Source of the DNA: a virus
Length of the DNA stretch: 64,000 bases
Strand: one strand, 5' to 3'
IMG/VR virus record: IMGVR_UViG_3300045988_141926
Location: 64,380 to 128,379 of that record
Shown piece after piece: positions 5,270 through 38,850 of this stretch; the first letter of the stretch is position 1, and each line of letters opens with the position of its first letter. A program made the translations under genes and the position numbers. The notes below the pieces were generated by a model. That model saw nothing but the letters and a program-made list of their open reading frames with translations. It was not told the origin of the DNA and ran no database searches.

Positions 5270-5452
5270 GTGATAAGTATGTTTAATATGAATGACCCGT
5301 TCTGGCCCTATGCGAAGCACACCCAAGAGGTAGAAGATATTATTGACGCGCTGGTTCACGCGGACGCGGGCAATTATACTATTGACGTCGATGATGACTT
5401 GTCGCAGTCTGACCTCGACTATATTAAGTCAGAAGTAATGCGACGTAGGTAG
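5270..5452 (+). CDS. hypothetical small acidic protein
   Basis: 60-aa ORF. Confidence 0.35.
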   Translation: MISMFNMNDPFWPYAKHTQEVEDIIDALVHADAGNYTIDVDDDLSQSDLDYIKSEVMRRR

Positions 5453-5462
5453 GAGGAAGATA

Positions 5463-6974
5463 ATGGCAAAAATTAAGCGTCCCACTCTGACTGTTAAATG
5501 TTCTCAGTTTGCGTTCGATGAACTGTTTGAGAAGTTTAATAAGGCAGTCAAGAGTAAGCAATATAAGAAGTTTGATTACGATGCTTGGTGTAAGATTCGT
5601 AAGACAATTAAGGAGCATTGTTCCAGAACTGATAAGACAATTATTCCGACTAATGTTCATTTCGATATTGATACAAATGAAGTATTAGTAGCTATTGGTA
5701 AGGAGGGTGTGGGATTTCAGTCTGACGATAAATCCTTCGGTCAGTTTCTTGCCAATGAGTGGACTCCTCGATTCATTACTGATGTTCTGATGAGTGGTAT
5801 TGAAGTAAGAGAAGTCAGTGATTATGTCATTTCTACGAAGCCTACTCCGACAGAGCAGACTTGGAAGGAAACAATGTGTGCTAATGATAGTTATTGTTAT
5901 AAGATTTACGTTAAACAGCGTGAGGAAATCAATAACTATTACAATGATGTAAATCAGCATTATGAAAAGATTTACACTGACGCTGATAAGTATAAGCCCA
6001 GTTATGCAACCGCTCAGCCCTCTAATTTGAGTTGGAGGGGCATTACAGGCGGTCCCATCGTAGATAATACTGCGACTAAGGCGACTACCAATACTGAGAA
6101 GCCTGATGGTTTTACTATTGATTGGAATGTGCCTACCAGCACTACTAAACCCATTACCAATGCTGTGAAGCCGGATAGTCTCACTCTTGATTGGTTTGCA
6201 ACTACAAGTAGCACGCCTATTAGTGCGGACGATTTGGGTTCTGTTGTTAAACTTAATACCAAGGCTGATGTTATCAAGTTCGAGCCTTGCGCTGACCAGG
6301 TAAACATTTGCTGTGATGACCTGTGTAAAAACTGTAAGAATTACGAAAAAAAGGATAATGAAGAAAAGGAGAATAAAATGAAGGGTTTCAATTTTGATTT
6401 CGGTAAGATTACCAACGATTCCATCCGTATGTCTATGTATGGTATGGCTGTTAAGAATGCCTCTGGTGTCTGGACTGCCTATGATAAGGGCACTGGCGAC
6501 CTGATGGACGTTGACGTGTTCAATTTCGATGGTTCCAATTTCCTGTTCAAGATGCCTGTGGCTATCAAGGACATTGCGGTGGGCGATGTCGTTATCCACG
6601 CACGCAAGCCTATGTTTGTGGTCAGCAAGACCGAGGCCGGCGACCTGGTTGCCATTGACCCCGTGGCTGGTGAGAAGAAGACTATTATGCCGACTCGCTC
6701 ACCTTTTGGATTTAATTTCTGTACTAAGATTATCTCCCTGTTTGATAACCTGATGGGCCAGACTCCTACCTCTGAGAACCCCTTCGGTAATCTGTGGATG
6801 CTGATGCTGATGGATGGCAAGTCCGATATGAAGGATATGCTGATTCCTATGATGCTGATGAGTCAGGCCAATGGTTCTACCAATGCGTTTAACCCTATGA
6901 TGCTGATGCTGATGAATGATGGCGATATGAAGGACATCGCCCTGCCTCTGATGCTGATGAATCAGGTTAAGTAA
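5463..6974 (+). CDS. hypothetical protein with C-terminal Met-rich tandem repeats (MLMLMxDGxxMKDM x3)
   Basis: 503-aa ORF; GGAGGAAGATA-ATG; repeats visible 6790-6960. Confidence 0.6.
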   Translation: MAKIKRPTLTVKCSQFAFDELFEKFNKAVKSKQYKKFDYDAWCKIRKTIKEHCSRTDKTIIPTNVHFDIDTNEVLVAIGKEGVGFQSDDKSFGQFLANEWTPRFITDVLMSGIEVREVSDYVISTKPTPTEQTWKETMCANDSYCYKIYVKQREEINNYYNDVNQHYEKIYTDADKYKPSYATAQPSNLSWRGITGGPIVDNTATKATTNTEKPDGFTIDWNVPTSTTKPITNAVKPDSLTLDWFATTSSTPISADDLGSVVKLNTKADVIKFEPCADQVNICCDDLCKNCKNYEKKDNEEKENKMKGFNFDFGKITNDSIRMSMYGMAVKNASGVWTAYDKGTGDLMDVDVFNFDGSNFLFKMPVAIKDIAVGDVVIHARKPMFVVSKTEAGDLVAIDPVAGEKKTIMPTRSPFGFNFCTKIISLFDNLMGQTPTSENPFGNLWMLMLMDGKSDMKDMLIPMMLMSQANGSTNAFNPMMLMLMNDGDMKDIALPLMLMNQVK

Positions 6975-7004
6975 TATATATCCCCCAGTTTGTTGATTTC
7001 ATCC

Positions 7005-7045
7005 CCAAAAATAAGGGTCTTACCTCTCGGCGGTAAGACCCTTAT
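7005..7045 (+). terminator. rho-independent terminator (AATAAGGGTCTTACC..GGTAAGACCCTTATT)
   Basis: 15-bp inverted repeat + T-run merging into -35. Confidence 0.65.
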
Positions 7046-7108
7046 TTGATTTTTTTATAAATTTATAATATAATATATATATAAGATGAAGAAAGGAAAT
7101 GATACAAA
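7046..7108 (+). promoter_or_regulatory. conserved phage promoter/leader
   Basis: TTGATTTTTTTATAAATTTATAATATAATATATATATAAGATGAAGAAAGGAAA. Confidence 0.6.
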
Positions 7109-8851
7109 ATGAATCTGTATGACGCCCTGACTACGGAAGATATTGACCTGATTCGTGCTTACATTGAGGCATATGGCGGTAAGAATGATGAGTATGATGC
7201 GACTGGTTGTTGCGTTCAGTCTATGCCGAACACGATGGCGCCGTGGGCAGAGGCTAAGGAGCGTCTCTACACGATGTTCGGTGAGCAGATTATTCTGAGG
7301 AAGTCCTTCAACTTTTCTAAGGGAGCTGATGAGCTGGCTGATGAAATCAATGAAGCTCGTTATCGTAGAGATGATAATGGCATCGCTAAGATGGAGGCCC
7401 TGATTCGTGAAAATTTCTGGATGCGGAGTAATTATTCCGCGTTGGGTCTAACTGACGAGGAAGCAGATAACATTACTCGTCTGGTTGATTCTTATATGCT
7501 GGCTAATAACTCTTGGAGCCGCTCTGAGTTCACTGTGAATGGCATTCGTGTGAATACCGGCGCCAAGGTTGTGAAGATTCTGGGTAAGATTCTCGCTACC
7601 TTTGAGAACCAGGAGTGGAATGAAATCTTCGAAGAGTTTCGTCTGGAACATTCTCGTATCCTCAATCAGAAGAAGCTGACTGGCGAACTGTGCCTGTCTA
7701 TTCACCCTCTGGATTTTATGACAATGAGCGATAATAACGAGGGTTGGGACAGTTGTATGAGCTGGCAGGCTTGCGGTGATTATCGTCAGGGCACCGTAGA
7801 GATGATGAACTCTCCTTGTGTCGTGGTGGCGTATCTGCGAAATCCCAACTATAAGATGGATATTCCTGATGGTCATTGGAACAGTAAGAAGTGGCGTTGT
7901 CTGTTTGTTGTTGACCGCGATGTTATTGTTAATATTCGCGAGTATCCCTATTGTAATGATGAACTGGTGGGCGAGTGCCTGAACTGGTTGAAGAGCCTGG
8001 CCGAGAAGAACCTTCATTATCAGTATCGTGATACTACCTGTCGGTATCGCGCTGATTGCGAGAACAGTGTTCAGGTTGGCGAGAAGAAAATTCCTGTGAA
8101 TTTTTCTACTGGTCATATGTATAGCGATTTCCGTTTTGAGCATCTGATGTATCTGAATGCCGCTCTGCCGGAGAAGATTGACATTTATTACTCTGGCGTG
8201 AGCGAGTGCCTGAGTTGTGGTAAGACTTCCAGCGGCTATGATGAAAGCCTCCTGAGTTCCAATGATTTGATTTGTCATAGCTGTAATGGCGATGGCGAGT
8301 GCGAAGAGTGCGGTCATTATTGTGATGCTGATGAATTGTATGAGGTTGAGGGTCGTTTGATTTGTCAGGATTGCTATGATAACGAGACTGCTGAGTGCCC
8401 GGCCTGTCAGCGTAATATTGACTTCTACAATTCCAAGTGTGAGGATTGGCGCGACCAATTGCCTGGTCCTGAGCGCCATTTCATCCATAGCGATAATACA
8501 TTTGAAATCGCGTTCAATGGCTATATCACTCATCTCCACTTTGATACTCTGTGTGAGTGTTGTGCTAAGAAGATTCGTTCTGGCGAAATCAAGGATTATG
8601 GCCCCGTTGAGCAGTTTGTTGATAAGTGGAACATTTCTCATACCTATCTGGATTTGGAGAAGATGACTGAGGACGCCGTTCAGGACGTTATCCCTTGGAA
8701 CGGTAAGGGCTGGATGAAGAATCGCAGAGACAATCCTAACCGCAGTTGGGTGAGTATCGAGAAGGGATATTGCGATTTTGATAAGGGTTATTTCGTTGAT
8801 GAAGATGGGAACGAAATCAAGAATCCTCACCCGCTCTTCTTCCCCAATTAA
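7109..8851 (+). CDS. hypothetical protein, family A (WNSKKWRCL / IPWNG motifs, Cys-rich zinc-ribbon C-terminus)
   Basis: 580-aa ORF; paralog of 11472..12935. Confidence 0.65.
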   Translation: MNLYDALTTEDIDLIRAYIEAYGGKNDEYDATGCCVQSMPNTMAPWAEAKERLYTMFGEQIILRKSFNFSKGADELADEINEARYRRDDNGIAKMEALIRENFWMRSNYSALGLTDEEADNITRLVDSYMLANNSWSRSEFTVNGIRVNTGAKVVKILGKILATFENQEWNEIFEEFRLEHSRILNQKKLTGELCLSIHPLDFMTMSDNNEGWDSCMSWQACGDYRQGTVEMMNSPCVVVAYLRNPNYKMDIPDGHWNSKKWRCLFVVDRDVIVNIREYPYCNDELVGECLNWLKSLAEKNLHYQYRDTTCRYRADCENSVQVGEKKIPVNFSTGHMYSDFRFEHLMYLNAALPEKIDIYYSGVSECLSCGKTSSGYDESLLSSNDLICHSCNGDGECEECGHYCDADELYEVEGRLICQDCYDNETAECPACQRNIDFYNSKCEDWRDQLPGPERHFIHSDNTFEIAFNGYITHLHFDTLCECCAKKIRSGEIKDYGPVEQFVDKWNISHTYLDLEKMTEDAVQDVIPWNGKGWMKNRRDNPNRSWVSIEKGYCDFDKGYFVDEDGNEIKNPHPLFFPN

Positions 8852-9490: not shown

Positions 9491-9561
9491 AATTTTTTGA
9501 CCAATTTATTGACATATATTAAAAAATATGCTATAATAAAAACAAAAAAGGATTTATTATA

Positions 9562-10431: not shown

Positions 10432-11472
10432 ATGCGAGTGATGAAAGACTCTGAGTATCTGGCATTCAAGCAGTTAGCCAAGCTCACCCAAGAGCAGATG
10501 ATTAAGGCTATGCGCGCCGTGTTAGAATCTCGTTATACAGATATTATCGCAACAAAGGAATATATTGTAGCCAAGGGAGATATTCCTATCGGATTAGTCG
10601 CCCATATGGATACAGTATTTCCGCTTCCTCCTACTGAAATTTATTATGATACTACACAGAATGTTGTGTGGAGTCCGCAGGGTCTTGGAGCTGATGACCG
10701 CGCTGGTATATTCGCGATTCTTCAAATTTTGAAGACCACAAAACTGCGTCCGCACATTATTTTAACTACCGATGAAGAGAAGGGCGGATGGGGCGCATAT
10801 GCGCTTGTTGAACAGCATCCAGAGTTTCCATTTGGTGATTTGAAATATCTGATTCAGCTGGATCGCCAGGGCGCGAATGATTGTGTGTTTTATGATGGTA
10901 TCAATGAAGATTTTATTCGTTATGTGTCTTCTTTTGGTTTCGTAGAGCATATTGGTTCATTTAGCGACATTAGTATTCTGTGTCCATTCTGGGATGTGTG
11001 CGGTGTCAATCTTTCTGTCGGTTATAAAAATGAGCATAGTCTCATTGAAACATTAAATATTAGCCATTTATTCGATACCATCCAAAAGGTGAAGAGAATG
11101 TTAATGGTGAAGACTATCCCTGACTTTGAGTGGAAGGAAAAATACTATCCTTATTTTACCAATGGGTATCCTCTGGATGATGATATCGACGAATATAGCG
11201 CGGCTTATGGTTATAATTGGGTAAATGATAGGCGTTCTGTCGATGCTTATACTGTAATTTGCCATAATTGTAAGAAGCCATTTTATAATTATGAAACGTT
11301 CCCCACTAAGAAAATTGATGGCGGAACTATGTTCTTGTGCCCCGATTGTGTGGGCGACCACGCTAATTGGTGTGATTGTTGCGGTGAAGCATTCGAGCGT
11401 ACGCCGGAAAATGCCGGGGCCACTATTTGCCCTGACTGTGCGAAAATTGAGAAGATTAAGGTTAAAGGTTAA
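10432..11472 (+). CDS. M28/M20-like zinc metallopeptidase domain protein with C-terminal zinc ribbons
   Basis: HMDTV, GADDRAGI and TTDEEKGGWG motifs resemble the metal-binding motifs of M28/M20 peptidases; four CxxC pairs at C-terminus. Confidence 0.45.
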   Translation: MRVMKDSEYLAFKQLAKLTQEQMIKAMRAVLESRYTDIIATKEYIVAKGDIPIGLVAHMDTVFPLPPTEIYYDTTQNVVWSPQGLGADDRAGIFAILQILKTTKLRPHIILTTDEEKGGWGAYALVEQHPEFPFGDLKYLIQLDRQGANDCVFYDGINEDFIRYVSSFGFVEHIGSFSDISILCPFWDVCGVNLSVGYKNEHSLIETLNISHLFDTIQKVKRMLMVKTIPDFEWKEKYYPYFTNGYPLDDDIDEYSAAYGYNWVNDRRSVDAYTVICHNCKKPFYNYETFPTKKIDGGTMFLCPDCVGDHANWCDCCGEAFERTPENAGATICPDCAKIEKIKVKG

Positions 11473-12935
11473 TGAAGAGTTATAATTTAGATGAACTAAA
11501 ACAGCAAGTTAAACACGTATTAGAGTATAGTCAGGATATCCAGGATGTGAGCGAGGACGCTCTTGATAATATGATGAATGAATGGGAGCGCAATAAAGCC
11601 CGATTCATTAATGATTATATGGGCGGTAAACTCATTATGGAGCTGCCAGGTAAGCGTTCCTTCCATTTGGGAGAAAAGGCAAAAATTAAGAAATACAATG
11701 ATTTCTTGGATTATGTCGCCCTGCGAATGAATAATTATGAACTGTGTCGATTTATTGAGACACAGGGTGAAGAAGCATTCTATGAAAATACGGTGAAAAC
11801 TGGTTGGGATCATACTAAGAGTGATACATTTATTTCACCGGGGTCTAAACTAATACGAGCATTTAAATATTTCATTGAAGATAAGGATTTGCTGGAAACT
11901 GTCCAGAATGAGGCCAGTCGCATTATTCAGGGAGACTGTATCGAGGGCATCCTCTGTATATCAGTACATCCTCTTGATTATCTTAGTCTGAGCGAAACCA
12001 CATATAATTGGCGTTCTTGCCACGCTCTCGATGGTGAATATCGTGCTGGTGATTTAAGTTATCTAATGGATGGCAGCACATTTATCTGCTATTTGAGAGG
12101 CGATGACAAACAAAAACTCCCTTCATTCCCCGATGATTTGCTCTGGAATAGTAAGAAGTGGCGTTGTTTGGGCTTCTTGGCTGATGATAAAAATGGTATT
12201 ATTATGGGGCGCCCATATCCCTATGAAGCCACAGATATTATTGATGAACTTCGTTGGGAAGTGTTTAATAGAAACTGGGATTTGGGCCTTGGGAGTTGGC
12301 GCGCAGACGCCATTCGTTCGGTTCAAGACCGCTTAACTAACTGGGATGAAGATTTGAGCCGTACTTATATCCCTTGGAATGGCCGTCTTGTAGAACTTGA
12401 TAAAACTGTTCATGATTGTCCAAGTCCTACTCATTATAATGATATTCTTTTATCCAGTTGTTATTTGCCTATTTATGCTCGTAGTAAAGGATATTTTGGT
12501 AAGAATGACTGGAAGAAGGTTCAGTATCATATTGGACACTCAGTAATGTGTATCCATTGTAATTCTGAGTATGTATCTCCTGGTGATGGCACAATGATGT
12601 GTCGTTCTTGTGAGATTAGATATGGCAATTCTGACAGTGATGATATTGTTTATTGTGAGAATTGCGGTTGTCGTTTATGGTATGAAGATGCTGTTATCGT
12701 TGGGGATAATGGAAATTATCTTTGTGATGAATGCGCTAGTAGAATCACTAAAACTTGTAGAGATTGCGGTAATCCATATTACATTGATGATTTAACATAT
12801 CATAAAGACGATGAAGATGAAAATGGCGGATATTATCTGTGCGGATGGTGCGAGCAAGATAGACAGGACACGGGAGAAATCGCAGAAAATGAATCTTCTA
12901 CTACTACCATAAGTTTTGATGAGTTTGATTTGTAG
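11472..12935 (+). CDS. hypothetical protein, family A paralog (WNSKKWRCL / IPWNG motifs, Cys-rich C-terminus)
   Basis: 487-aa ORF sharing motifs with 7109..8851. Confidence 0.6.
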   Translation: MKSYNLDELKQQVKHVLEYSQDIQDVSEDALDNMMNEWERNKARFINDYMGGKLIMELPGKRSFHLGEKAKIKKYNDFLDYVALRMNNYELCRFIETQGEEAFYENTVKTGWDHTKSDTFISPGSKLIRAFKYFIEDKDLLETVQNEASRIIQGDCIEGILCISVHPLDYLSLSETTYNWRSCHALDGEYRAGDLSYLMDGSTFICYLRGDDKQKLPSFPDDLLWNSKKWRCLGFLADDKNGIIMGRPYPYEATDIIDELRWEVFNRNWDLGLGSWRADAIRSVQDRLTNWDEDLSRTYIPWNGRLVELDKTVHDCPSPTHYNDILLSSCYLPIYARSKGYFGKNDWKKVQYHIGHSVMCIHCNSEYVSPGDGTMMCRSCEIRYGNSDSDDIVYCENCGCRLWYEDAVIVGDNGNYLCDECASRITKTCRDCGNPYYIDDLTYHKDDEDENGGYYLCGWCEQDRQDTGEIAENESSTTTISFDEFDL

Positions 12936-13053
12936 TCATTAAATACAAGACCTATATATTATATACACGATGAAAATGGCGAATGGATACCTATTACGCG
13001 AGTGCGTCAAATACCTCCGCCAGAACGTGAATAATTATTTAAATATTTAAGGA

Positions 13054-13353: not shown

Positions 13354-13432
13354 TATAATGAGATAAGTCATTTGACTTATCTCTTTTTTTTTGTTATAAT
13401 TTAAATAGAATTAGATTATAAGGAGATTTAAA

Positions 13433-14134
13433 ATGTATAATCAAATTATTGAAGAATTAGAAGCTCTTAAATAGCATTTTGATGATGAAGATATTGTATC
13501 ATATCAATTACTCTTAATTAAAATTAAGAAAATTATTGATTTAATTAATGATAAACAACTTGAGGAAGCAGATAAAGGCAAATTATCTAATTATATTCGA
13601 GATTATTTAGCAAGTTTGCATTTAAATAGAATTTTTACAATTTCTGATTTAAATGAATTATTTATTCCAGAAGTGAAAGATTTAGATATTGGTAATAAAA
13701 ATATTTATATTACAATTTTTAATTTATTCGTGGAAGAATTATCTGATGTAGATAATATTTTTTCTCAAAAACTTAAATATTGTATTACAAATATGATTTC
13801 TAGAATTGCTACTTCTGTGGATGAAGCAATGATCGCAGAAGATAAAACTCAAGAAACTGTAGTTAGTGAACCTGTTCAAATTATTCCAACTATAAATACA
13901 GTAAATACTAATTCATTCGATTTGGATATTGATATTACTAATAAAAATTATTTGAAAGAATATATTATGCGTAAAAATTTAAAACCTTATAGATGTGATA
14001 TTTGTGGATTAAGTTCTTGGCAAAACAATCCTCTTATGCTATATTTATATAGTAAAAATCATATTTATTCAAATAAAAATTTAGAAAATCTGATGTTTTT
14101 ATGCCCTAATTGCTATTCTCAGATTGGAGAGTAA
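13433..14134 (+). CDS. HNH endonuclease (TAG read as sense; 1 in-frame TAG)
   Basis: C-terminal CDICG..WQ..NHIYSNKNLENLMFLCPNCYSQ HNH motif; frame continuous with ORF 13616..14134 through TAG at 13472. Confidence 0.55.
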
Positions 14135-14137
14135 TTT

Positions 14138-15325
14138 ATGTATTATAATTCTTATAATTAGAATTATTTTAATGGATTAAATAAAATATTCAATAAATTT
14201 GATACTAATAATATTAATGATTATTATAATTTATTAAAATTAATATATGATATATATTTTAATGAAAATGTATTTATAATTGTTAATGATGATATAAAAT
14301 ATCAATTAGAATCAAATTTAAAATTACTTATTAAAAAAAATAATTGGTTTATAGATTTTGAACAAACTGAAAAAAATATATTAATTTCATTATTTATTAT
14401 AATTACTTAGAAAATTAATTTTGGAAATTATTATCAAATTAATAATACATTAAAACAATAGATTGAATCATTATTATTAGATAAAAATTTAATTAATGAA
14501 AAAATGATTCATGATAGTAAAAATGTTTTTCATTTAGTTGATAGTTTTCCTGAAAATGAAAGTATGATTAAATTTTTTAAGCAATATAATATTGATATTA
14601 TGAATTAGGAATTTTTAACTATTGGTGATACAAAAATTCCTAATTTTTATTTAAAACAAAAAAATAAAATGATAGATCATTATTATGAATTTTGTCATTT
14701 ATTATTTAAAATTTATAGTCCAATTTTATATTATGGTGTTTCATTTGAAGAAGGATATGAATATAAAATAACTGATAAAGATATTGTATTCGATTGTGGC
14801 GGAAATATGGGACTATTTGCGCTATACTGTGCTTCAAAAGGCGCACGAGTATATTGTTTTGAGCCTATGTCTTATATTAGAGATTTTTTATATGAGAGTC
14901 AAAAATTATATCCTGATTTAATCCATATTATTCCTTGTGGAGTGTCTAATAGAAATTAGGAACAATATTTTTCTCAAACCTATAATCCAGGAGCTGGATC
15001 GAATTCAATATTTCATGAATTAGAATATACATCTGATAGATTATATAAAGAAAAATGTAAGTTAATTACATTAGATTCATTTAGTTAGAATAATCATATT
15101 GTTCCTACATTTATTAAAGCAGATATTGAAGGGTCTGAAGCACAAATGCTTGAAGGCGCTTCACAAATTTTACAAACATATAAACCAACTATGAATATTT
15201 GTTTAAATCATCGGATGGAAGACCAATATAATATTCCTACCCTTATTTATAATACCAATTCTAATTATTCATTTTATTATTTTATTGAAGGAGAAATACA
15301 TTCTAAATTTGTATTGTGTAAATAA
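14138..15325 (+). CDS. FkbM-family methyltransferase (several in-frame TAG)
   Basis: VFDCGGNMGLFALYCASKGARVYCFEP and KADIEGSE motifs typical of FkbM MTases; same frame as ORF 14669..14959. Confidence 0.5.
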
Positions 15326-15327
15326 AT

Positions 15328-16281
15328 ATGCCAAATATTATTTTAACAGAATATTGTAATCTTCAATGTCCTTATTGTTTTGCTAGTAAAATGATTGAAG
15401 AAAAAACAGATAATACAAAAAATATTTCTATTGAATAGTTAGATAAAATTTTAAAATGGTTATTACCTTCAGCAACGAATTTAGATCGGATTGGATTAAT
15501 TGGAGGAGAACCCACTTTACATCCTTAGTTTAGAGAGATATTAGGTAGAATAAATTCATTTAATGAATTTACAAATACTTCTTCAATAGTATTTACAAAT
15601 GGAATTAATTTAAGTGAATTTTTATCTACTATTGGACCAAATATGTCAATTTTAATTAATGTAAATAAATTGACTGGTAAATCATTAAATAAACTTAATA
15701 GTGTATTAGATGAAATTAATTATTTAAGTTGGTTTAAAATTGATAAAGTTATTTTAGGATGTAATTTATACCAAAATGAAAATAATTATTCTTATTTTTG
15801 GGATGTAGTTGATAAATATCCAGATATTTCAAGAATAAGAATGTCTATTACTGCACCCAATAGCAAAGAATTAAAAGCAAATAAAGAATTGTATTATACT
15901 ATTATGAAACCTATATTATTACAATTTTTAGAAGAAACTAAAAAACGTGATATAAAAATTTCATATGATTGTAATTAGATTCCGTTATGTTTATTAAACA
16001 ATGAAGAATAGGATTTAGTAAATCAATTAGGGGAATTAAATAGTTTTTGTGAACCCGTTATAGATATTACTCCAGATTTTAAAGCTACTTGCTGTTTTGG
16101 TGTTTATGATAATCCTATTCAATGTAATGATTTTAATAATATCGAAGAATTAACTAGATATTTTAAAAATCAAATAGTAATAAAAACTATAAATAATAAC
16201 ACTTCCATGTGCAAAGATTGTAAAAAATTACAACTTGCTCAATGTCAAGGAGGATGTTTATCATTTTCTAATGTTGGGTAA
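15328..16281 (+). CDS. radical SAM protein (CNLQCPYC CxxxCxxC; 4 in-frame TAG)
   Basis: N-terminal MPNIILTEYCNLQCPYCFA; GGEPTLHP; C-terminal Cys cluster (CKDCKK..CQGGC) suggests an auxiliary-cluster domain. Confidence 0.6.
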
Positions 16282-16339
16282 GTATAAGTAATAAAGTTTT
16301 ATAATTTTTTAATTCTAAAAAAGAAGGAGGAATTTTTTT

Positions 16340-16777
16340 ATGGCAAATATTACTTATGAATTAATTTTTAAATTTACTTCTGGTAAAGAGGTAAATTTTA
16401 TTGATGAAGAACATACATTTTCTATTGTAGAAGATTATCGTTCTCCAGTTCTTTTAACCCCTCAAATGTTTGGTATTGATGATTTACGTGAGTATTATGC
16501 ATTATTATTAATTGATGGCAAACCTATGGAAGATTATGCATCAAATTATTGTAATTTTAAAAATTTTGGTAATTCTATTGTTGATTTGCTTAATAATGAA
16601 GATACTATTTCAGAAATTATTTTAAGAGATACTAATACTAAAGGAGAATATTTCCATATAAACTCTGATCAATTAGTAGGCATTGAAGCCGGCGGAGGAA
16701 CTGATAGAGGTTTTGATAATATAATGGTATATCGTATACAAATTTATTATAAAAAAGTTGGAAAAATAGGTGAGTAA
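16340..16777 (+). CDS. hypothetical protein
   Basis: 145-aa ORF without TAG. Confidence 0.45.
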   Translation: MANITYELIFKFTSGKEVNFIDEEHTFSIVEDYRSPVLLTPQMFGIDDLREYYALLLIDGKPMEDYASNYCNFKNFGNSIVDLLNNEDTISEIILRDTNTKGEYFHINSDQLVGIEAGGGTDRGFDNIMVYRIQIYYKKVGKIGE

Positions 16778-16779
16778 TA

Positions 16780-17400
16780 ATGGGAGCTAATGCTACATCT
16801 GTAGGTACTTTAGTTAAATTATCTGATTTAGATGCATTATATTTACGTTTATATAATTTAAAAGTAGCTCATATTAATGATGCAGATTAGATTAATAAAT
16901 CTGCTCTAACGGTTCCAGCTCAAAGCAGTGGATTAACACGAGGTAGTAAAGTAGAAGTTTCAACTGCTAAAATTGCAACATTAAAATCTGAATTGGCAAA
17001 TTTAGCTCAATCAAAATGGTATCAATCTGACACAGCAAATACTGTAGTAACAATGACAGATTTTAGTACAAATATTAAAGTACCTAATGTAGGAGATTTA
17101 TTAAAAAGCGTAGATTTTAATCTAATTGAAACTGCAATCACTTCTGCAGAATAGATTATTCCTACTTATTCAAATAAATATAATGCTCGTTATAGTTTTT
17201 GTTATAGTGGTCATTATACCTCTGATTATGGTACTTGTTATGATGCTCGATATGGTACTTGTTATAGCAATTGTTATAGTAATCGTTATAGTACTCGATA
17301 TGGTACTTGTTATAGTTGTTATGGTTGTTATGGTTGTTATCGCAGATATAGCTCAAGGTATGGTAGATATGCTGCAAAAAATGTTCAAATTAGATGTTAA
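16780..17400 (+). CDS. precursor-like protein with Cys/Tyr-rich repetitive C-terminus (YGTCY, CYGCYGCY repeats; 2 in-frame TAG)
   Basis: frame from ATG 16780 read through TAG gives ...YSFCYSGHYTSDYGTCYDARYGTCYSNCYSNRYSTRYGTCYSCYGCYGCYRRY...; flanked by radical SAM genes. Confidence 0.45.
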
Positions 17401-17411
17401 AGGTGAATTAA

Positions 17412-18848
17412 ATGTTAATAAATAAATTAGATTTAATGGGATCCAGCAGCTGTGATTTAAAATGTTCTTATTGTTATATTACAAAAAATTGTTCATTTTA
17501 TAATTATGATTCCGCCGTTCAAGAAGCTTGGGAAACTGGATCTTATTTAACTACTATTAAACAAGTTTTTTCGAAATTGGATGCAGACCCTACTCAAATA
17601 AAAGATTTAGAATTTTGGGGAGGAGAACCTACATTACATATTAAAGAAATGGCTTCTCAAGGAAAAGCATTAGGATAGTTATTTCCAGAAGTTGATTTTG
17701 TATTAATCCCAACTAATTGGTATTAGATTAATATGCAAGCCTTAGTAGATTTTATTTACAATTTTAATGATGGTATCTCTCCTCGTGGAAGTAAATCAAA
17801 AAATGTTAATTTTCATTTACAACTATCCATTGATGGGCCTCCTGGAGATTTTAATACTTATGGTCATAAAGTACCTTGGGATATCTATAAAAAACAATTT
17901 GATGATTTTTGTTTTTATTTAAAAGAAAAAGAAAATTCTGGAAGAGAATTAAAAAATATTAATATTATTTTCGCTATTAGTGGAACCTCTTAGCAAAAAT
18001 ATATTTTAAAAAATTTAAATACTTTAGATAAAATAAAAGAATTTCAAGAATATATTAAAAAAGTTTGTAAATATGTAAATGATGAACTAAAACAATTTAA
18101 AACTATAGATATATTTTTAGGAACTCCAATTTGGACTCCTACGGTAGCTATTCCAGATTCGACAACCACTGAAGAAGCATTAGAATTAAATAAAATTGCA
18201 CTAATGTTAGAATATAGTGATTATGTTAATGGAATAAAACCTTATAGTATTGATGCTAATGAAATTCAAGGTTTTCATGCAACTTATGGAGAATTAAATG
18301 TATTGGACAGAAATCACGAATGTCCAGAATCTAATGAACATGCAATTACATTAATGCCTGATGGAACTATAGCTGAATGCCCTTGTACTTTTTTATAGAA
18401 TTTGGATTCTTATAAACAAGAATTATTAAATAATAAATAGTATTGGGAATATAAATCTTGCTTAATTAGAGACGGTAGTTTTTATAATCCATTATTAGGT
18501 GATGAAAAACTTGATAATTACCATAGTTGGTATGTTTATGGTGGTGGATTTATTGGGACTAATTCTACTTATGCTAATTTAAATTTAAATATGGCTTATG
18601 AAATGGCTTTATCAAGATAGATTGATTATAACTATGCATTAAATCCAGAGTTATTAATGAGACATTATATGGCTATTTTTACAACTGCTGAATGCTATCG
18701 TGAAAATGTTAATGTGACTCATAATCATTTTTTAACAGACCATAACATGTTTAGGCGTTGGTATAATGGTTATGCTGAATTAGGATATAAAGATCATCGA
18801 GAGAAGATTAAAAAAATTATGGAAAATGTATTAAAAGGAGAAAATTAA
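17412..18848 (+). CDS. radical SAM protein (CDLKCSYC; ~7 in-frame TAG)
   Basis: ORFs 17412/17733/18204/18657 all in frame 0 separated only by TAG; GGEPTLH motif. Confidence 0.55.
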
Positions 18849-20032
18849 TGTTAGTACAAGAACAAGATAATCTCTTACTGCGAGATATAATAGAACGTAA
18901 TTATTATACATTTTTTCGTAAGGATGAGTATGTAAATAAAAATTTAAATATTTCTTTTTTCTATGATAATGATTATACTGATTATAAAATTATTCCTAAT
19001 TATGAGTCATTAGAAGATAAAAATGCTAACTTTGAATAGATTTATAATAATTTTAAATTATTTTTAAATTATTATAAAAGCCAAGGATTTAATGCTAATA
19101 TTAACATTCATGATGATAAATTTTTTGATAATTTTGAATTAAATTTATCACTATTTAATTTAATTTATGAACAAGAAATTAAATTTAAATCATTAAACTT
19201 TTATATTAGTTTATATAAATTTGAAGATTTAAATTCTCTATTTAATAAAATTAATATATTAAACAATAAATTTCATATAAATTTTGTTTTTAGCTTACTA
19301 ATTTCTCAAATTAATTTATTTAAAAATCAAGATATTAATAATTTAAATTATAAACTAAATATTTTAATTCCTCCACAAATGCCTTCAGAAGAATTAATAT
19401 TTAATTAGAAAATAATTGATAGTAATAATTTTAATATTGATTAGTATATTGAAGTTGATTCTGATTTATGGACTATCGAAGCGATAGAGGATTATTTAAA
19501 ATATTTAAATTACTTAATGGATAATTTAAATGATTTAAATGAAATTTTCTTTACAAATTTACCTATTGCTTTACAAGATTAGCATATATTAGATAATACA
19601 AATTGTAAGAAAAATTGTGATTTTCAAAATTCATTAAATGTTTTGATAGCAGATTTAAGCATTAATTTATGCCATAAATTTCAATTTAAAGATTTAATTA
19701 TTGGTAATTATATATATAATGAAGAAAATAATAAATTAGAAATTGTAAGTAAAAATCTTCCAACGATAATATTAGGTGCGCATTTAAAACGTTCTAGCAC
19801 TCCTCATTGTGAAACTTGTTCTTATGTTAATATATGTCAAGGCTTTTGTTTTATGCGTTCTTATTTAAAATGCTATAATCCTATTATACCCATTCAGGAA
19901 AGTTGCTTATTAAAAAAAATAAAATATAATTTTATTTTTAATAAATTAAAAAATCAAAATTTTAATATTGATAATAATTTAATTATTTCAGATTTATATA
20001 AGCAATATTTATATCAAATCTTAAAACATTAG
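18848..20032 (+). CDS. hypothetical protein with C-terminal Cys motif (CETCSYVNICQGFC), possible SPASM-like partner (TAG-containing)
   Basis: ORFs 18848 and 19643 in same frame joined by TAG codons. Confidence 0.4.
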
Positions 20033-20045
20033 GGAGGGGAAAATA

Positions 20046-20315
20046 ATGTATTTACCAATACATAATAATTATTATTATTTATTAATTAATACTCCTCTTA
20101 CTTATCCAATTTGTTTAGATGAAGAAGAAGCTTTAGCTTATTTAAAATATATTAATCGAGATGACTATCAATATAATAATATTGCTAATTATGATGTTCT
20201 TGATTATGAAAAAATAATATATATTGAAGTTTCTTTCCCAAATAATGAAGAGATTCAAAAATTACTTACTAAAATTAAAGATAATATTGCAACTGGTTAT
20301 GCATTAAGAAATTAG
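20046..20315 (+). CDS. hypothetical protein
   Basis: 89-aa ORF, GGGAGGGGAAAATA-ATG. Confidence 0.45.
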   Translation: MYLPIHNNYYYLLINTPLTYPICLDEEEALAYLKYINRDDYQYNNIANYDVLDYEKIIYIEVSFPNNEEIQKLLTKIKDNIATGYALRN

Positions 20316-20364
20316 TATAAAAATCGTCTTTTTGATTTTAGCAATTATAAAGAGGAGCGGCTTT

Positions 20365-21768
20365 ATGAACCTTCAAGCGCCAAATATTGTGGATTGCCAA
20401 GAGATAACTTGTGATATGATAGAAGATTATCTTGCTAAACGATACCAATAGCAAGTATTAAAAACAAAGTTTCCTTTTGATGTAGAAATACAATTAATTT
20501 TAGCTAGAAATTGTAATTTAAACTGTACTAATTGTTAGGCTGGTTGTAATATTAATGATAAAAATGAATTAATGACATTAAATGAGATTAAATATGCTAT
20601 ACCTAAATTAAAAGAATTTTTCCAAGATAAAATTTTGTAGATAGTTTTATTTGGTGGAGAACCATTATTAAATCCAGAATATGAAGAAATTTGCTATTAT
20701 ATACGAAGTGAATTACCAGAAGTCTCAATAGATATTTATACTAATGGCATCCTTAAATAGAATTGGACTGAAGAAGATTATGAATTTGCAGTGAAAAATG
20801 AAGTGCATTTTACCCAAAGCTTATATCCATTAGGAGAATCATATTTTAATAATACTTAGAAACAAGAAGAATTAATGACTAAATTAGGTATTAAACATGA
20901 AATATGTGGAAATCGTCCTTTTTTTATTAAAGGAGGTTATAATAAAACAGGAAGTTCAAATCCAAATCGTTTTTTTCAGTGTTGTCATTCAATGTTTCCC
21001 CCTCATTTTTATTTATTTAAAAAATAGTTATGGCGATGCGCGCCAACATTAAGCTGGGATAAAATTAATATTCCTTGTTTCCCAGAAGATTATTTAAATA
21101 TTGATAATTTGACAGAAGAACGTTTTATTGAATATTGTAGCAAACCATTAAAAATATGTAAATATTGTGGAAACTCAGATGAATTAGGATTTGGAAGTGA
21201 TGAAATAATAACTTGGCATCATTAGAAAGATTTGCCCAGTAATTATGATTAGACTTTATATGATTTATATATAAATAATTATAAATTATATTATAAGTAT
21301 GTCCATGATTGCAAAACTATTCTTCCTTGTTTTGATAATTAGTATTTTATAGATAATATTAAAGCAGAGGATTTGCCTTCTCATCCAAGTATAATGTTTT
21401 TAAAAAAATTTAAAACAGGATTAGGAGATGTATGTATCCCATTTGATAAAGAATCTTGTTAGGATATAAAAAATTTATTAAAATTTAAAAAATTAATTTT
21501 AAATTAGAATAATTATTTAAATATAAATTTTTATTTTATTTCATTAGATGGAAATAAGCCAGCGAAATCTATTATTTATCGAATGTTTCCTCCCGCTTCT
21601 TGTGATTTAGAAGGGAATATTTATTTATTAGAATCAGACAATCCCAATAATTTTTATCAAATATTTTTACAAAATAGTTATTTAAAAAAGAAAATCTGTA
21701 TTTTAAACTATAAAGATTTATTAGATAAGAATTATTTATCAAATAAATTTAATGAAATGGATGGTTAA
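20365..21768 (+). CDS. radical SAM protein (CNLNCTNC; many in-frame TAG)
   Basis: AGAGGAGCGGCTTT-ATG; VLFGGEPLLNP; frame continuous to ORF 21583..21768. Confidence 0.5.
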
Positions 21769-21771
21769 TAA

Positions 21772-33321: not shown

Positions 33322-33394
33322 TAGGATAAAACTTATTAATTGTCTATATTCAATTCTTAAAATATATAGAAATATGTTTTAAGGAGGTAGAATT

Positions 33395-34198
33395 GTGGAA
33401 TTTTTAGGTTGTAATCCTTCTAAAAAAGATTTAAGAAATTATAAAATTAGAGCTACAGCTTCTTAGATTGATAATTTACCTGATGAATTTGAATTACCAA
33501 AATATTCATTTATTAAAAATCAAGGAAGTGTTGGTTCTTGTGTTCCTCATGTAGTATCTGAAATACTTGAATATCATAATCATGGACAGAATAGATTATC
33601 TACTAATTTTTTATATGGTATAAAACGAGAATTGTGTGATGATTTAAGTTAGGGTATGTATTTAAGTGATGCTTGTAAAATAGCAACTAAATATGGTGAT
33701 ATGCTTGAATCTGATTGTTCAGGTAATGTTGAAATTCCTCATGCTTGGTATGAGGCCGAAAGTGCGTATGCTAATGCTGAAAAAATGAAGCGTGCATATA
33801 CATTTAGATTATAGAGTTATTTTACTTGTAAAACAAATAATGATATTAAAGTTGCCCTTCAAAAATATGGGCCGGTCGCTGCATGTATTGATTGGTATCA
33901 AGGATGTAGGGCTAAAAATGATGGAACATTTATTTATAACATAAAACACAAATCAACTTATCATTGTATTATGATTTATGGATGGAATAAACAAGGGTTT
34001 TTATGTCAAAATTCATTCGGTAAATCATGGGGCAACGATGGTTGTTTTATTTTACCTTATGATTATGTTATTGGTGATGCTCGCGCATTAGTTGATGAGT
34101 ATAATCCAGAAGAAGAAGCATTAATTATACCAAAGACTAATAAATTTTTAGATTTTTGGTATAAAATTTTAAATTGGTTTATTAATTTGGTGAGGTAA
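33395..34198 (+). CDS. papain-like (C1 family) cysteine peptidase (GTG start; 3 in-frame TAG)
   Basis: QGSVGSC (Gln/Cys), HCIMIYGW (His), NSFGKSWGNDGCF (Asn-Ser-Trp) catalytic motifs. Confidence 0.55.
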
Positions 34199-34214
34199 TT
34201 TGGAAAAAAGATTA

Positions 34215-35480
34215 ATGTGGTTTCTTACAAATTAGTGCAATTTAAATTGTTTAAATTGCGCCAATCACTGTGATGATCCAAGCGTTAAAAAATTTTTTAT
34301 AACATTAGATGATGTGGAATTAAATTTAAAAAAAATAAAAATATTATTTTCAAATTTGGATACTTTAGATTTAAGTGGTGGAGAAGCAATTTTACATCCT
34401 TAGATTTAGGATATTTGTAAAATGATTTATAAATTTTTTCCAAATATAAAAATTATGATTTATACAAATGGATTAATATTAAATCATTTAACTGAAGATT
34501 TATTATTTTTTTTAGCTAATTATCATATTAAATTTGTTATTTCTATTTATCCTAGAATAAAATATTTTTAGTAGTATGAGTTATTATTTAATAAATTAGA
34601 TAATAATAATATTGAATATGAAATAAGAAATAGTTTATTATTTCATTGTAATCCTATTATATAGGATTTAAATAATGAAGAAAAGAAAAAATGTTTTTGT
34701 GTTAACTATGATAATTCAACTTATTATTTAATTAATAATTATTTTTATCCTTGCTGTATAGCTGTTAATAATTTTTCTTATTTATCTGATAATAGTCGTA
34801 AAAATCTAACTACAATTTAGGATTTATCAGAATTAGATAATATGATGAATAATTTATTAACTCTTTGTTATAATTGTTCGAATACTCGTGTATTTATACA
34901 TCCTTGGCATGAAACTACATTAGGATTAAATAGAAGTTTATTAAAAAAATATAATTATAATTTATTTGATTTATATTATTATGATTATAATAAATATAAA
35001 TAGATTTATTATGATTATGATAAAGATTATTTAATTTTAATGCATTATCCTATTATGAGGAAATCGTTTGGAGATATGCCAGGATTATTTAATAAATCAA
35101 GCTTAAGTGTAAAATATTTAAACGGTTTATTAGATATTTATGTTTATATTCCAAATAATTTATCATTAAATAAGTTAAATAATTATATCGCCCAAATTCA
35201 AAAACAATCTATTTTTTCTAAATGTAATTTTTATTATTTAAAAAATTTTAATAATAATAATTATAATATAATGAATGAATTATATAATAAATTTTCTCCA
35301 TATAAGCAAGAAGAAAATCATTGTTATTATTTATAGTCTAATTCATATGAAAATGGTTATAAAGAATTTTTAGAACATAGTTTTTTACCTTATAAATTTA
35401 GTTTAGATATAACTAATTTAAATAATTTAAAAGATGAAAACTATCTGGAGAAACAATATAATCAATTACAAGGAATATAA
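34215..35480 (+). CDS. radical SAM protein (CNLNCLNC; many in-frame TAG)
   Basis: MWFLTNQCNLNCLNCANH; GGEAILHP; frame 0 continuous with ORF 35040..35336. Confidence 0.5.
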
Positions 35481-35481
35481 T

Positions 35482-36030
35482 ATGTTAAAAGCTATAATGG
35501 CCGGTGTTTTGATTGGTATTGCCGGTCTTGTTAATCTAAGTATTAATGTTCCTTATTTAGGAGCATTTCTTTTTTCTACTGGACTATTAATTATTTGCTA
35601 TTAGCAATATAATTTATATACTGGTAAAATTGGATATATTAAATCATTAAATGATTTTAAAAATTGTTTAATTTATTTAATCGGCAATTTAATTGGTGTA
35701 TTTTGTATAGGTATTATTCCGCAAACAACTACAATATTAAATAAAATTAATCAACCATGGTATTTAACATTATGGTTGTCTATTGGTTGTGGTATTCTTA
35801 TTTATTATGCAGTTGATATATTTAAGAAACATAATAGTGTAATTGGAATTTTATTATGTGTTCCTACATTTATTATATGCGGTTTTAATCACTGTATTGC
35901 TAATATGTATTATATAATTGCAAGTCGTGAATTTACCATTGATGCTTTAATTTTTATTATTATTTGTATTATTGGAAATTCAATAGGTAGTTTAATTTGT
36001 AATTATGTTGACAATTTTAAAAAAATATAA
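35482..36030 (+). CDS. integral membrane protein, formate/nitrite-transporter-like (GFNHCIANMYY motif)
   Basis: multi-TM; motif resembles FNT family; 1 in-frame TAG. Confidence 0.4.
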
Positions 36031-38180: not shown

Positions 38181-38531
38181 ATGGAAGAAGTCGCGGTAAA
38201 AACTCATTTAATCATTACTGATATTCATGAAGAATATTATATGAATTGGTGCGGTAAAATTTTTGATGCGAAACCTAAATTGAAAAATGGTTTACCTGTT
38301 TTTACAATTATTGGTAGCCGCGGTCGAATGGAAATTAGCACGATTGATATGAATCAATTGGAAAAATGTGCTAAATCTTTGACTTATCCGCGAGGTCGTT
38401 CTGCCGTTTCTAAAGATAGTTCTCAAATCTATATCCAAGAGATAGACGGAAATGAGAAACTATTGGGTGTTTTAACTCATAAGCATATTAAGAGTTATGC
38501 TCCAATGTATGATAAAGTAGGTTTTAGATAA
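38181..38531 (+). CDS. hypothetical protein
   Basis: 116-aa ORF. Confidence 0.45.
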   Translation: MEEVAVKTHLIITDIHEEYYMNWCGKIFDAKPKLKNGLPVFTIIGSRGRMEISTIDMNQLEKCAKSLTYPRGRSAVSKDSSQIYIQEIDGNEKLLGVLTHKHIKSYAPMYDKVGFR

Positions 38532-38776
38532 GGAGAGTAATATGAATTTTCACACTAAGGCTCATTATGAGTATCGTATTGCAAAACTGAAGGCTAAGGG
38601 TGAGGTTGTTAATGCCAATTTAATTCGTAAGGCCGAGCGCAAATTGCGTAATATGAAGTAATTTGACATTTTAAAAAATTTATTGTATAATAAATATATA
38701 AATTAAAGGCTTGTTCAGCAAATACTTGTGTAATAGATGATTTAATTAGGTTATTTATTCGAGCCTTGTCAGACAT

Positions 38777-38850
38777 TCCGGCTTGGAGTAATGGTAGCCC
38801 GCCTGACTCTAAATCAGGTCGACTCGGTTCGAATCCGAGAGCCGGTGCCA
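38777..38850 (+). tRNA. suppressor tRNA(CTA) reading UAG (probably Gln-derived)
   Basis: anticodon arm CCTGA-CTCTAAA-TCAGG (anticodon CUA), T-arm CTCGGTTCGAATCCGAG, acceptor TCCGGCT/AGCCGGT-G-CCA with U1:U72. Confidence 0.65.

Follow-up and report, generated by a model that had tools for sequence, protein, structure and literature searches.

The tRNA gene at 38777-38850 of the window (the whole 64,000-nucleotide stretch of DNA that we analysed) is very probably a phage amber suppressor, with which a gut phage of ~130-200 kb adds TAG to its two glutamine codons, as in genetic code 15. The gene and its anticodon are:

38777..38850, + strand: amber-suppressor tRNA(CUA), 71 nt plus encoded CCA (ARAGORN, Rfam RF00005)
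38809..38811, + strand: anticodon CTA (CUA), which reads UAG (ARAGORN anticodon position 33 and direct reading of the sequence)

An initial annotation, made from the sequence, had recognised a tRNA(CUA) here with the anticodon loop CTCTAAA, and both claims were borne out. ARAGORN found a tRNA with anticodon CTA at 38777-38850, and the covariance model RF00005 matched at 52.5 bits, well above its gathering score of 29 (E = 2e-8 for the whole window), with 38777-38847 covering model positions 1-71 of 71. The covariance-model alignment gives an acceptor stem with six of the seven pairs, as had been noted; the 1:72 pair that had been called weak is in fact a U1-U72 mismatch. Describing the cloverleaf as clean was slightly generous: the fold holds, with an A11-C24 mismatch and a U13-G22 wobble in the D stem. 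The T arm is indeed perfect (CUCGG/CCGAG, loop UUCGAAU), the anticodon stem has 5 bp below a CUCUAAA loop, G10 is paired with C25, and position 9 is G. The assignment to type I was also correct, as the variable loop is 4 nt and the D loop 7 nt with GG, and the G73 discriminator is present, followed by the encoded CCA.

ARAGORN prints 'tRNA-Pyl' for this gene, which is merely the default name it gives to any CUA anticodon. That label, and the many radical-SAM genes in the window, PylB being a radical-SAM enzyme, could suggest that TAG encodes pyrrolysine. We consider this extremely unlikely. A tRNA-Pyl has a short D loop without GG, a 3-nt variable loop and a 6-bp anticodon stem, whereas this tRNA is ordinary: its D loop is 7 nt long and contains GG, its T loop is UUCGAAU, and its anticodon stem and variable loop measure 5 bp and 4 nt. 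The radical-SAM genes match the generic Radical_SAM and Fer4_12 models (SPASM, anSME and CteB kind), no PylS-like gene was found in Pfam and PHROG scans of the window or in the precomputed annotations of the orthologues, and TAG exchanges with CAA and CAG, not mainly with lysine codons.

The amber suppressor is 100% identical in five independent assemblies (L016-L020) and lies 166 nt upstream of a tRNA-Tyr gene in five fetched loci. The protein of 116 amino acids encoded next to it (38181-38531) is unchanged on nine contigs and belongs to a family with 512 members in public metagenomes. More diverged suppressors were found at the same position in L021, L022 and L023, where the adjoining protein is 78% identical and the tRNA only ~64-68%, and at a different position in L024. 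The two diverged types score 41.8 and 58.1 bits against the Rfam tRNA model. Comparing the suppressors of the window, L023 and L024, we found compensatory double changes at 12 of 21 stem pairs, with the fold kept, and identity in all three at 22 of 31 unpaired positions compared with 15 of 42 paired ones. G73 and CCA are common to all three. The only pair that is non-canonical in every one of them is 1:72 (U-U in the window, C-U and U-U in the other two). This mismatch, present in 3/3 distinct suppressors, occurs in just one of ~83 other clade tRNAs with an encoded CCA, and the clade's canonical tRNA-Gln and tRNA-Trp genes have a paired 1:72 (A1-U72 or U1-A72). We conclude that 38777-38850 encodes a genuine type I tRNA with anticodon CUA, whose structure is under constraint.

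The suppressor tends to be found with TAG-containing genes. L021 and L024 carry it together with TAG-rich, AT-rich genes, while in the 20 kb fetched for L029 there is no suppressor, none of 16 genes has an in-frame TAG, and one gene uses TAG as its stop. Against this association, the 20 kb fetched for L027 has three TAG-containing genes and no suppressor. The window itself is 100% identical over 20,351 nt to NODE_13 of ENA ERZ1749178, a contig of 131.6 kb, and over 2.4 kb to OIZL01007764.1, and IMG/VR contigs of ~197 kb from sample 3300045988, including 3300045988_140174, are relatives at 90-96% nucleotide identity; 3300045988_140174 shares one identical stretch of 134 amino acids with the window. 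The one match from a metagenome scan was a 3.3-kb contig, identical to the window. Viral contigs contained no exact copy of a 22-mer from the anticodon arm, and a TAG-free stretch of the radical-SAM gene at 48202 found no viral relatives. Four proteins searched as one concatenated sequence had no match in a large protein database. Two hints about the host conflict: a distant relative (55% amino acid identity), the only hit among reference genomes, lies on a phage-like contig of 175 kb that was binned with a Clostridium sp. MAG, and the tRNA array encodes an ArfA-like peptide of a family restricted to beta- and gamma-proteobacteria.

About 20 + strand genes of the window contain in-frame TAG without in-frame TAA or TGA. 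When TAA and TGA are taken as the sole stops, three blocks of tightly packed + strand ORFs with up to 12 in-frame TAG each come to light, and a few further genes have one TAG each:

13433..25172, + strand: main recoded block, with an FkbM methyltransferase, four radical-SAM/SPASM-like genes, three GT8-like genes and others
33383..36030, + strand: second recoded block, within the tRNA array, with a papain-like peptidase, a radical-SAM gene (9 TAG) and an FNT-type channel
47902..50806, + strand: third recoded block, with a small ORF, an anSME/CteB-like radical-SAM gene, a Cys-rich ORF and one more ORF
43692..46130, + strand: DNA-methyltransferase-type genes (43692-44258 and 44946-46130), one in-frame TAG each
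12933..12935, + strand: single TAG near the 3' end of gene 11466-13034

The recoded class also includes homing endonucleases, a PhoH-like gene and an endolysin.

At 18-30% GC, compared with 39-46% elsewhere, the TAG genes could be taken for foreign DNA, and one might suppose that they are decaying pseudogenes or junk, with a real tRNA that has no systematic decoding role. Their reading frames leave hardly any room for this. In the main block, 60 TAG but neither TAA nor TGA occur in frame 0, against 230 and 567 TAA/TGA in the two remaining frames; at main-block composition, a 400-codon ORF would lack TAA and TGA by chance with a probability of ~6e-15. Across all TAG ORFs there are no in-frame TAA or TGA in ~3,900 codons, against ~300 expected by composition. 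The ORFs are intact at 80-99% protein identity in at least seven relatives, the orthologous genes of relatives to the main block carry TAG too, Pfam domains extend across the TAG sites, the genes are tightly packed, and consensus promoters stand before the blocks (a 12/12 site at 47843 before the third block and another promoter at 13372 for the main block). The TAG ORFs are real genes and not pseudogenes.

We used several comparisons to identify the amino acid that TAG encodes. Midway through the main block lies a TAG-free ORF (16319-16777) that has 13 relatives at 81-97% identity. Flanking DNA was fetched for seven distinct relatives, at 87-92% nucleotide identity to the window, and the TAG genes of the window were codon-aligned with these seven. 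The relatives also have in-frame TAG, in differing numbers. In pairwise comparisons the codons opposite a TAG of the window were TAG (140), CAA (37), GAA (5), AAA (5) and others at no more than 3 each, while those opposite a TAG of a relative were CAA (33), CAG (6), GAA (5), AAA (5), TGG (1) and TAT (1). There are 100 alignment columns with TAG, 30 of them TAG in every strain. Glutamine is an alternative in 51 of the 70 variable columns (CAA in 48, CAG in 7) and the sole alternative in 40; lysine occurs in 11, glutamate in 9, arginine in 4, tyrosine in 3 and tryptophan in 2. Seen from the other side, 34% of the columns containing glutamine also contain TAG, compared with 6% for tryptophan and ~3% for arginine, glutamate and lysine, and no other residue exceeds 6%. 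CAA is two substitutions away from TAG, and therefore mutational adjacency cannot account for the interchange, whereas synonymy can. The GT8-like paralogues within the window likewise have CAA opposite TAG at three sites.

Two further tests were independent of the recoded lineage. In L034, a relative at ~92% nucleotide identity, a 612-aa endolysin with three in-frame TAG lies ~6 kb past the point where the window ends. One of these TAG codons is the X of the PG_binding_1 motif AVRSF-X-SKNGL, where an FQ is conserved, and all five of the best PDB homologues have glutamine there. Placing glutamine at this site gave 77.5 bits against Pfam, glutamate 72.3, lysine 71.4 and tryptophan 67.5, so that glutamine was 5 to 10 bits above all other residues tested. 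We also inserted each candidate residue that is a single step from the anticodon at all 24 TAG sites that lie within Pfam-matching segments of eight window proteins and summed the Pfam scores, which were 241.0 bits for glutamine, 239.2 for glutamate, 235.8 for lysine, 233.7 for tyrosine, 232.0 for serine, 223.6 for leucine and 218.3 for tryptophan. A radical-SAM gene of the window aligned with PDB sequences has its TAG at non-conserved sites (A/Y/M at one, Q/K/S at another).

The suppressor could in principle insert another residue whose anticodon is one change from CUA: tryptophan, lysine, glutamate or tyrosine. Its loop CUCUAAA is one change from that of the clade tRNA-Trp, G73 and a weak 1:72 pair are found in Trp tRNAs as well, and its weak blastn similarity is to phage tRNA-Trp and tRNA-Glu besides tRNA-Gln. 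Lysine and glutamate are the next most common alternatives in the TAG columns, and glutamate is just 1.8 bits behind glutamine in the Pfam substitution test. Against this stand the predominance of glutamine in the variable columns, the endolysin FQ site, and the Pfam ranking, in which tryptophan was the worst residue, ~23 bits behind over the 24 sites. Tryptophan would in addition need C35 and A9, both of which are absent, and an amber tRNA-Trp takes glutamine in E. coli (PMC9976931). We judge another residue to be very unlikely, with lysine, glutamate and arginine appearing at TAG columns only as the usual replacement partners of glutamine. The combined codon-comparison, endolysin and Pfam evidence excludes tyrosine, leucine and serine as the TAG residue.

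The comparisons thus point the same way. The initial annotation had proposed that TAG is read as glutamine, and the residue that TAG replaces in homologues (relatives, PDB and Pfam) is glutamine; with the covariance-model score above threshold as well, this proposal is well supported by the alignments: TAG encodes glutamine (genetic code 15). Tryptophan, lysine and glutamate, which the annotation had left possible, are now disfavoured, glutamate by the small margin given above. Its further suggestion, that the suppressor accounts for the TAG-containing islands, is likewise supported.

Codon use shows where TAG has come to be used. Gene composition is bimodal, with TAG-free genes at 39-46% GC (GC3 0.33-0.53) and TAG genes at 18-30% GC (GC3 ~0.10-0.16), the range found in the main block at 13433-25172. 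Seven large TAG-free genes use 91 CAG and 7 CAA for glutamine, whereas the TAG genes use 136 CAA, 79 TAG and 4 CAG, and TAG makes up 30-56% of the glutamine codons in each TAG gene. In the AT-rich gene class, then, where CAG is nearly absent, TAG takes its place beside CAA.

All six strains have the single TAG at 12933-12935, and after it comes a tail of 30-45 residues that is conserved at the protein level. The conserved tail argues that this TAG is read through, and we take it to be decoded and not a stop. A different interpretation of the suppressor starts from the same site: it may give regulated, partial read-through, with TAG still ending some genes and a subset of proteins being extended. 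With an invariant TAG 30-45 codons from its end, gene 11466-13034 could produce a short and a long isoform, host RF1 presumably still competes at UAG, and the related phage L029 uses a TAG stop. However, a gene with 5-12 internal TAG yields no product unless every one of them is decoded efficiently, TAG is a large share of the glutamine codons in the TAG genes, and no gene in the window, which covers 64 kb of a ~130-200 kb genome, requires a TAG stop, all of them ending at TAA or TGA. Partial read-through therefore seems very unlikely, and we continue with TAG as a regular glutamine codon.

How the suppressor came to be charged with glutamine is less clear from its ancestry. It has 58-73% identity to all clade tRNAs and is no closer to tRNA-Gln than to several other isotypes, and its best blastn matches among GenBank phage tRNAs are partial, at 72-83% identity, and mixed between Gln, Trp, Glu and Lys. 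Its acceptor stem, xCCGGCU...AGCCGGU-G, is near that of the L024 tRNA-Gln(CUG), ACCGGAU...AUCCGGU-G, and both tRNAs have a 7-nt D loop and a 4-nt variable loop. Its anticodon loop, CUCUAAA, is that of the clade tRNA-Trp, CUCCAAA, with C35 changed to U, while the L021 suppressor loop, CUCUAAC, is the Gln(CUG) loop with G36 changed to A. An origin from tRNA-Gln or from tRNA-Trp looks ambiguous on these similarities. Because the body is not clearly derived from tRNA-Gln, the assignment of glutamine rests on the decoding evidence.

Binding to GlnRS opens the 1:72 end of the tRNA. The bacterial glutamine identity set comprises G73, U1-A72, G2-C71, G3-C70, G10, U34, U35, G36, A37 and U38, with U35 a main contact of GlnRS; in E. 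coli, glutamine is also loaded onto an amber tRNA-Trp (PMC9976931). The suppressor has G73, G10, U35 and A37. It lacks U1-A72, with U1 kept and A72 changed to U; it has C2-G71 and C3-G70 in place of G2-C71 and G3-C70, as does one canonical tRNA-Gln(CUG) of the clade (L024, 9440-9513); and it has A38 in place of U38 and, by necessity, A36 in place of G36. The initial annotation had read G73 and the weak 1:72 pair as features of tRNA-Gln. G73 stands, and the clade's canonical tRNA-Gln genes also have it; a literal U1-A72 is absent, and Trp tRNAs share both G73 and a weak 1:72 pair. The suppressor does not carry the tRNA-Trp identity set (A1-U72, G2-C71 to G5-C68, A9, C34 C35 A36). Its only tRNA-Trp features are G73, C34 and A36, and U1-U72, C2-G71, C3-G70, G9 and U35 all differ. 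The indirect pathway to glutamine, through a non-discriminating GluRS and an amidotransferase, prefers U34 and a paired U1-A72 (PMC9976931), and therefore indirect charging of the suppressor in a host without GlnRS would be a poor fit.

Two amber suppressors of E. coli invite comparison. supE (glnV44), in which tRNA-Gln(CUG) has become CUA, likewise decodes UAG as glutamine, with G36 changed to A36 and C34 and U35 kept, and it has G73, G10 and A37 in common with the present suppressor. supE keeps U1-A72, G2-C71, G3-C70 and U38, where the present suppressor has U1-U72, C2-G71, C3-G70 and A38, and it is a mutant host gene whereas ours is a dedicated phage gene. su7, a tRNA-Trp-derived amber suppressor charged with glutamine (cited in PMC9976931), resembles the present suppressor in having a Trp loop with C35 changed to U and G73, and shows that the CUA anticodon is by itself enough to redirect a tRNA to GlnRS. 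In contrast to su7, the present suppressor has G9 and not A9, and its stem, xCCGGCU, is unlike the clade Trp tRNAs (AGGGGUC, AGGGAUG) and resembles the clade tRNA-Gln(CUG), ACCGGAU.

The suppressor lies in an array of 26 tRNA genes predicted by ARAGORN, all on the + strand between 26.7 and 43.6 kb, and is the only one of them with anticodon CTA. The closest other tRNA of the window is at most 73% identical to it, and ARAGORN found no tRNA-Gln (UUG or CUG), tRNA-Trp or tRNA-Gly in the window's array. Two elements precede the gene:

38663..38691, + strand: perfect sigma-70-type promoter, TTGACA-17-TATAAT, 86 nt upstream of the suppressor
38692..38776, + strand: pre-tRNA leader, with a conserved closing stem AAGGCU...AGCCUU around a CAGCAAA motif

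The window has nine perfect 12/12 promoter sites, every one on the + strand, against ~0.03 expected by chance, which is our own rough estimate from composition and not the output of a tool. A promoter is retained upstream of the diverged suppressors, with 11/12 matches in L021 and 10/12 in L024. With a consensus promoter 86 nt upstream, the suppressor is therefore probably transcribed as its own unit by a sigma-70-type RNA polymerase. The leader stem has a G-to-A/C-to-U compensatory change in L024, and the folding z-scores of the leader are weak (-0.5 to -2.1). We rejected the leader as a suppressor-specific regulator, as the same element also precedes the tRNA-Leu(UAA) at 41636-41720. Neither a release factor nor a synthetase was found in our Pfam and PHROG scans of the window or in the precomputed annotations of the orthologues. 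A 50-aa ArfA-like ORF in the tRNA array is the sole translation-factor-like neighbour of the suppressor.

These results suggest the following picture. Host RNA polymerase would transcribe the suppressor from its own consensus sigma-70-type promoter, and the 85-nt leader would be processed off. Host GlnRS would then charge the tRNA with glutamine, recognising U35, G73, G10 and an already open 1:72 end; the mismatch may compensate for the lost G36. The charged suppressor would compete with RF1 at UAG, and the TAG genes would yield full-length protein only after it had built up. The AT-rich accessory islands, with their radical-SAM, glycosyltransferase, methyltransferase and homing endonuclease genes, would depend on the suppressor, as would the endolysin that a close relative has just outside the window, while the TAG-free, GC-rich genes would be translatable from the start of infection. 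A published model has standard-code genes expressed first, with recoded late and lysis genes needing the suppressor (bioRxiv 10.1101/2021.08.26.457843). The recoded lysis gene here, the endolysin, agrees with that model. However, the recoded blocks (promoters at 13372 and 47843) have the same consensus promoter class as the suppressor itself, which leaves temporal gating of the TAG genes by the suppressor no more than plausible.

It is tempting to go further, and we do so tentatively. The conserved pyrimidine-U72 mismatch, with G73, may have evolved as an identity booster, opening the acceptor end in advance so that host GlnRS accepts a tRNA without G36. TAG would be an AT-shifted replacement for CAG, read by a tRNA one base from tRNA-Gln(CUG), and it may also act as a translational lock on the accessory cargo islands and the endolysin. 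The ArfA-like peptide in the array, which would recruit RF2, may be part of the same takeover of translation. Taken jointly, an identity booster at 1:72 and TAG as the replacement for CAG, with a possible lock on cargo, in a bimodal genome, make a combination that we regard as possible but doubtful.

Reading TAG as glutamine with phage suppressor tRNAs is established in Lak, crAss-like and other gut clades, including ones of ~200 kb (bioRxiv 10.1101/2021.08.26.457843; PMC9523058), has been validated by metaproteomics (PMC9523058) and is widely reported in jumbo phages (PMC13037316). The code-15 phages Lak, crAss-like, Garnet, Amethyst, Agate, Jade and Sapphire (Borges et al.; Peters et al. 2022) likewise have a phage tRNA(CUA) and many in-frame TAG, TAG aligned with glutamine, some TAG-free genes, a recoded lysis gene and low-GC recoded parts, and the Jade and Sapphire clades have genomes of ~200 kb, similar to the size here. 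The present case differs from them in that its tRNA has no sequence-level match to the tRNAs of GenBank phage records, the window has no RF2 or aaRS gene, and recoding is concentrated in hyper-AT islands of radical-SAM, GT8 and methyltransferase genes within a strongly bimodal genome. phAss-1 and the proposed Phassvirus phages (PMC10607447), which also come from the human gut, likewise have suppressor tRNA genes and many TAG-containing ORFs, but their genomes are 136 kb with three suppressor genes, and their TAG lies in characteristic phage ORFs. The Jade 'code change module' of suppressor tRNA, TrpRS and RF1, which converts TGA to Trp, similarly places its suppressor in a region compatible with the standard code near recoded genes; it concerns another stop codon and amino acid, and the present suppressor is not accompanied by a synthetase or release factor.

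The phenomenon of a phage suppressor that reads TAG as glutamine is thus already established, and the conceptual gain here is modest. What this phage might add is the conserved 1:72 mismatch, the CAG-to-TAG dichotomy that goes with bimodal GC, and the ArfA-like ORF. It also adds a well-documented suppressor with diverged orthologues. In practical terms, a widespread and mostly unannotated clade of gut phages must be annotated with genetic code 15, as the standard code fragments its radical-SAM, glycosyltransferase and methyltransferase clusters and its endolysin. For the tRNA itself, the combination of a CUA anticodon, G73 and an open 1:72 end provides a testable rule for its hand-over to host GlnRS.

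GC content in the window is sharply bimodal, as a comparison of 5439-8851 and 51244-53739 with 13400-25172 illustrates, and the division extends to codon use. Genes free of TAG have a GC content of 39-46% and a GC3 that reaches 0.53, and they encode glutamine with CAG. In contrast, TAG-containing genes have a GC content of 18-30% and a GC3 of about 0.1, and they write glutamine as CAA and TAG, with CAG nearly absent.

Perfect TTGACA-17-TATAAT promoters occur nine times in the window, every one on the + strand, while our composition-based estimate of the number expected by chance is about 0.03. Among the matches listed, they start at 9509, 10371, 36008, 38663, 41065, 41590, 42150 and 47843. Recoded genes are preceded by near-perfect versions of the same site at 13372 and 44314. 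This looks like one uniform promoter class, common to the tRNAs, the TAG-free genes and the TAG genes.

A conserved leader element, AAAGGCU..CAGCAAA...GAGCCUUGU, precedes both the amber suppressor tRNA(CUA) and tRNA-Leu(UAA). Copies are found at 38705-38768 and 41636-41720 in the window and, in the relatives' own coordinates, at about 1303-1352 in L021 and about 17781-17850 in L024. It folds as a closing stem stopping about 8 nt short of tRNA position +1; the L024 copy carries one compensatory change (G-to-A / C-to-U), and the folding z-scores are weak.

The tRNA array has the following unusual members; nearly all of its remaining tRNAs encode CCA:
27986-28059, +, tRNA-Thr(GGU), directly adjoining tRNA-Ala, without CCA
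29873-29942, +, tRNA with a CAU anticodon, detected by Rfam alone at 35.8 bits
30086-30158, +, 'tRNA-Phe' with anticodon AAA, without CCA

Homing-endonuclease-type genes (HNH, GIY-YIG and PDDEXK_5) are dispersed across the array and its flanks, for example in the region of 41780-42148 and, in relatives, at L031 3818-4747 and L027 12353-13105. They are AT-rich, contain TAG and vary in presence among near-identical strains; the related loci L016, L017 and L018 show insertion differences around 41.8-43 kb.

Also within the array, a TAG-free ORF of 50 aa (28923-29075, +) ends 3 nt upstream of tRNA-Glu(CUC). It scored 24.3 bits against Pfam PF03889 (cutoff 25.5; E = 2e-5), just below threshold, and all six of its PDB matches were ArfA chains, aligned over the motif FRxR..N.KGKG.Y.RK.KH. 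By sequence it resembles ArfA, the ribosome-rescue factor that recruits RF2, which is otherwise known only from some beta- and gamma-proteobacteria.

The window also holds a set of GC-rich, TAG-free, RNA-related genes:
46199-47785, +, DUF2828/DUF7788 protein, labelled 'RNA-binding protein' in PHROGs
51244-53739, +, 831-aa protein with the major-vault-protein domains MVP_shoulder and Vault_3
57454-58269, +, RlaP-like RNA-repair nucleotidyltransferase
60155-61531, +, RNA ligase

Proteins of the huge phages LR756500-503 (462-735 kb) share 41% identity with the MVP-like protein.

Three GT8-like paralogues lie at 21772-25172 (+). The N-terminal part of the third matches residues 269-367 of the first exactly, shared TAG codons included, suggesting a recent duplication. 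Immediately next to radical-SAM/SPASM genes lie repeat ORFs rich in Cys or in Cys and Tyr (16774-17400 and 49502-50227, +; for example ...YGTCYSNCYSNRYSTRYGTCYSCYGCYGCY... and ...CSGGCSGGCRGGCSGGC...), which could be RiPP-precursor-like substrates of the neighbouring enzymes.

The gene at 11466-13034, of moderate GC, has a single TAG (12933-12935, +), kept in all six strains and lying 30-45 codons before the stop. This codon could yield short and long isoforms, dependent on the suppressor.
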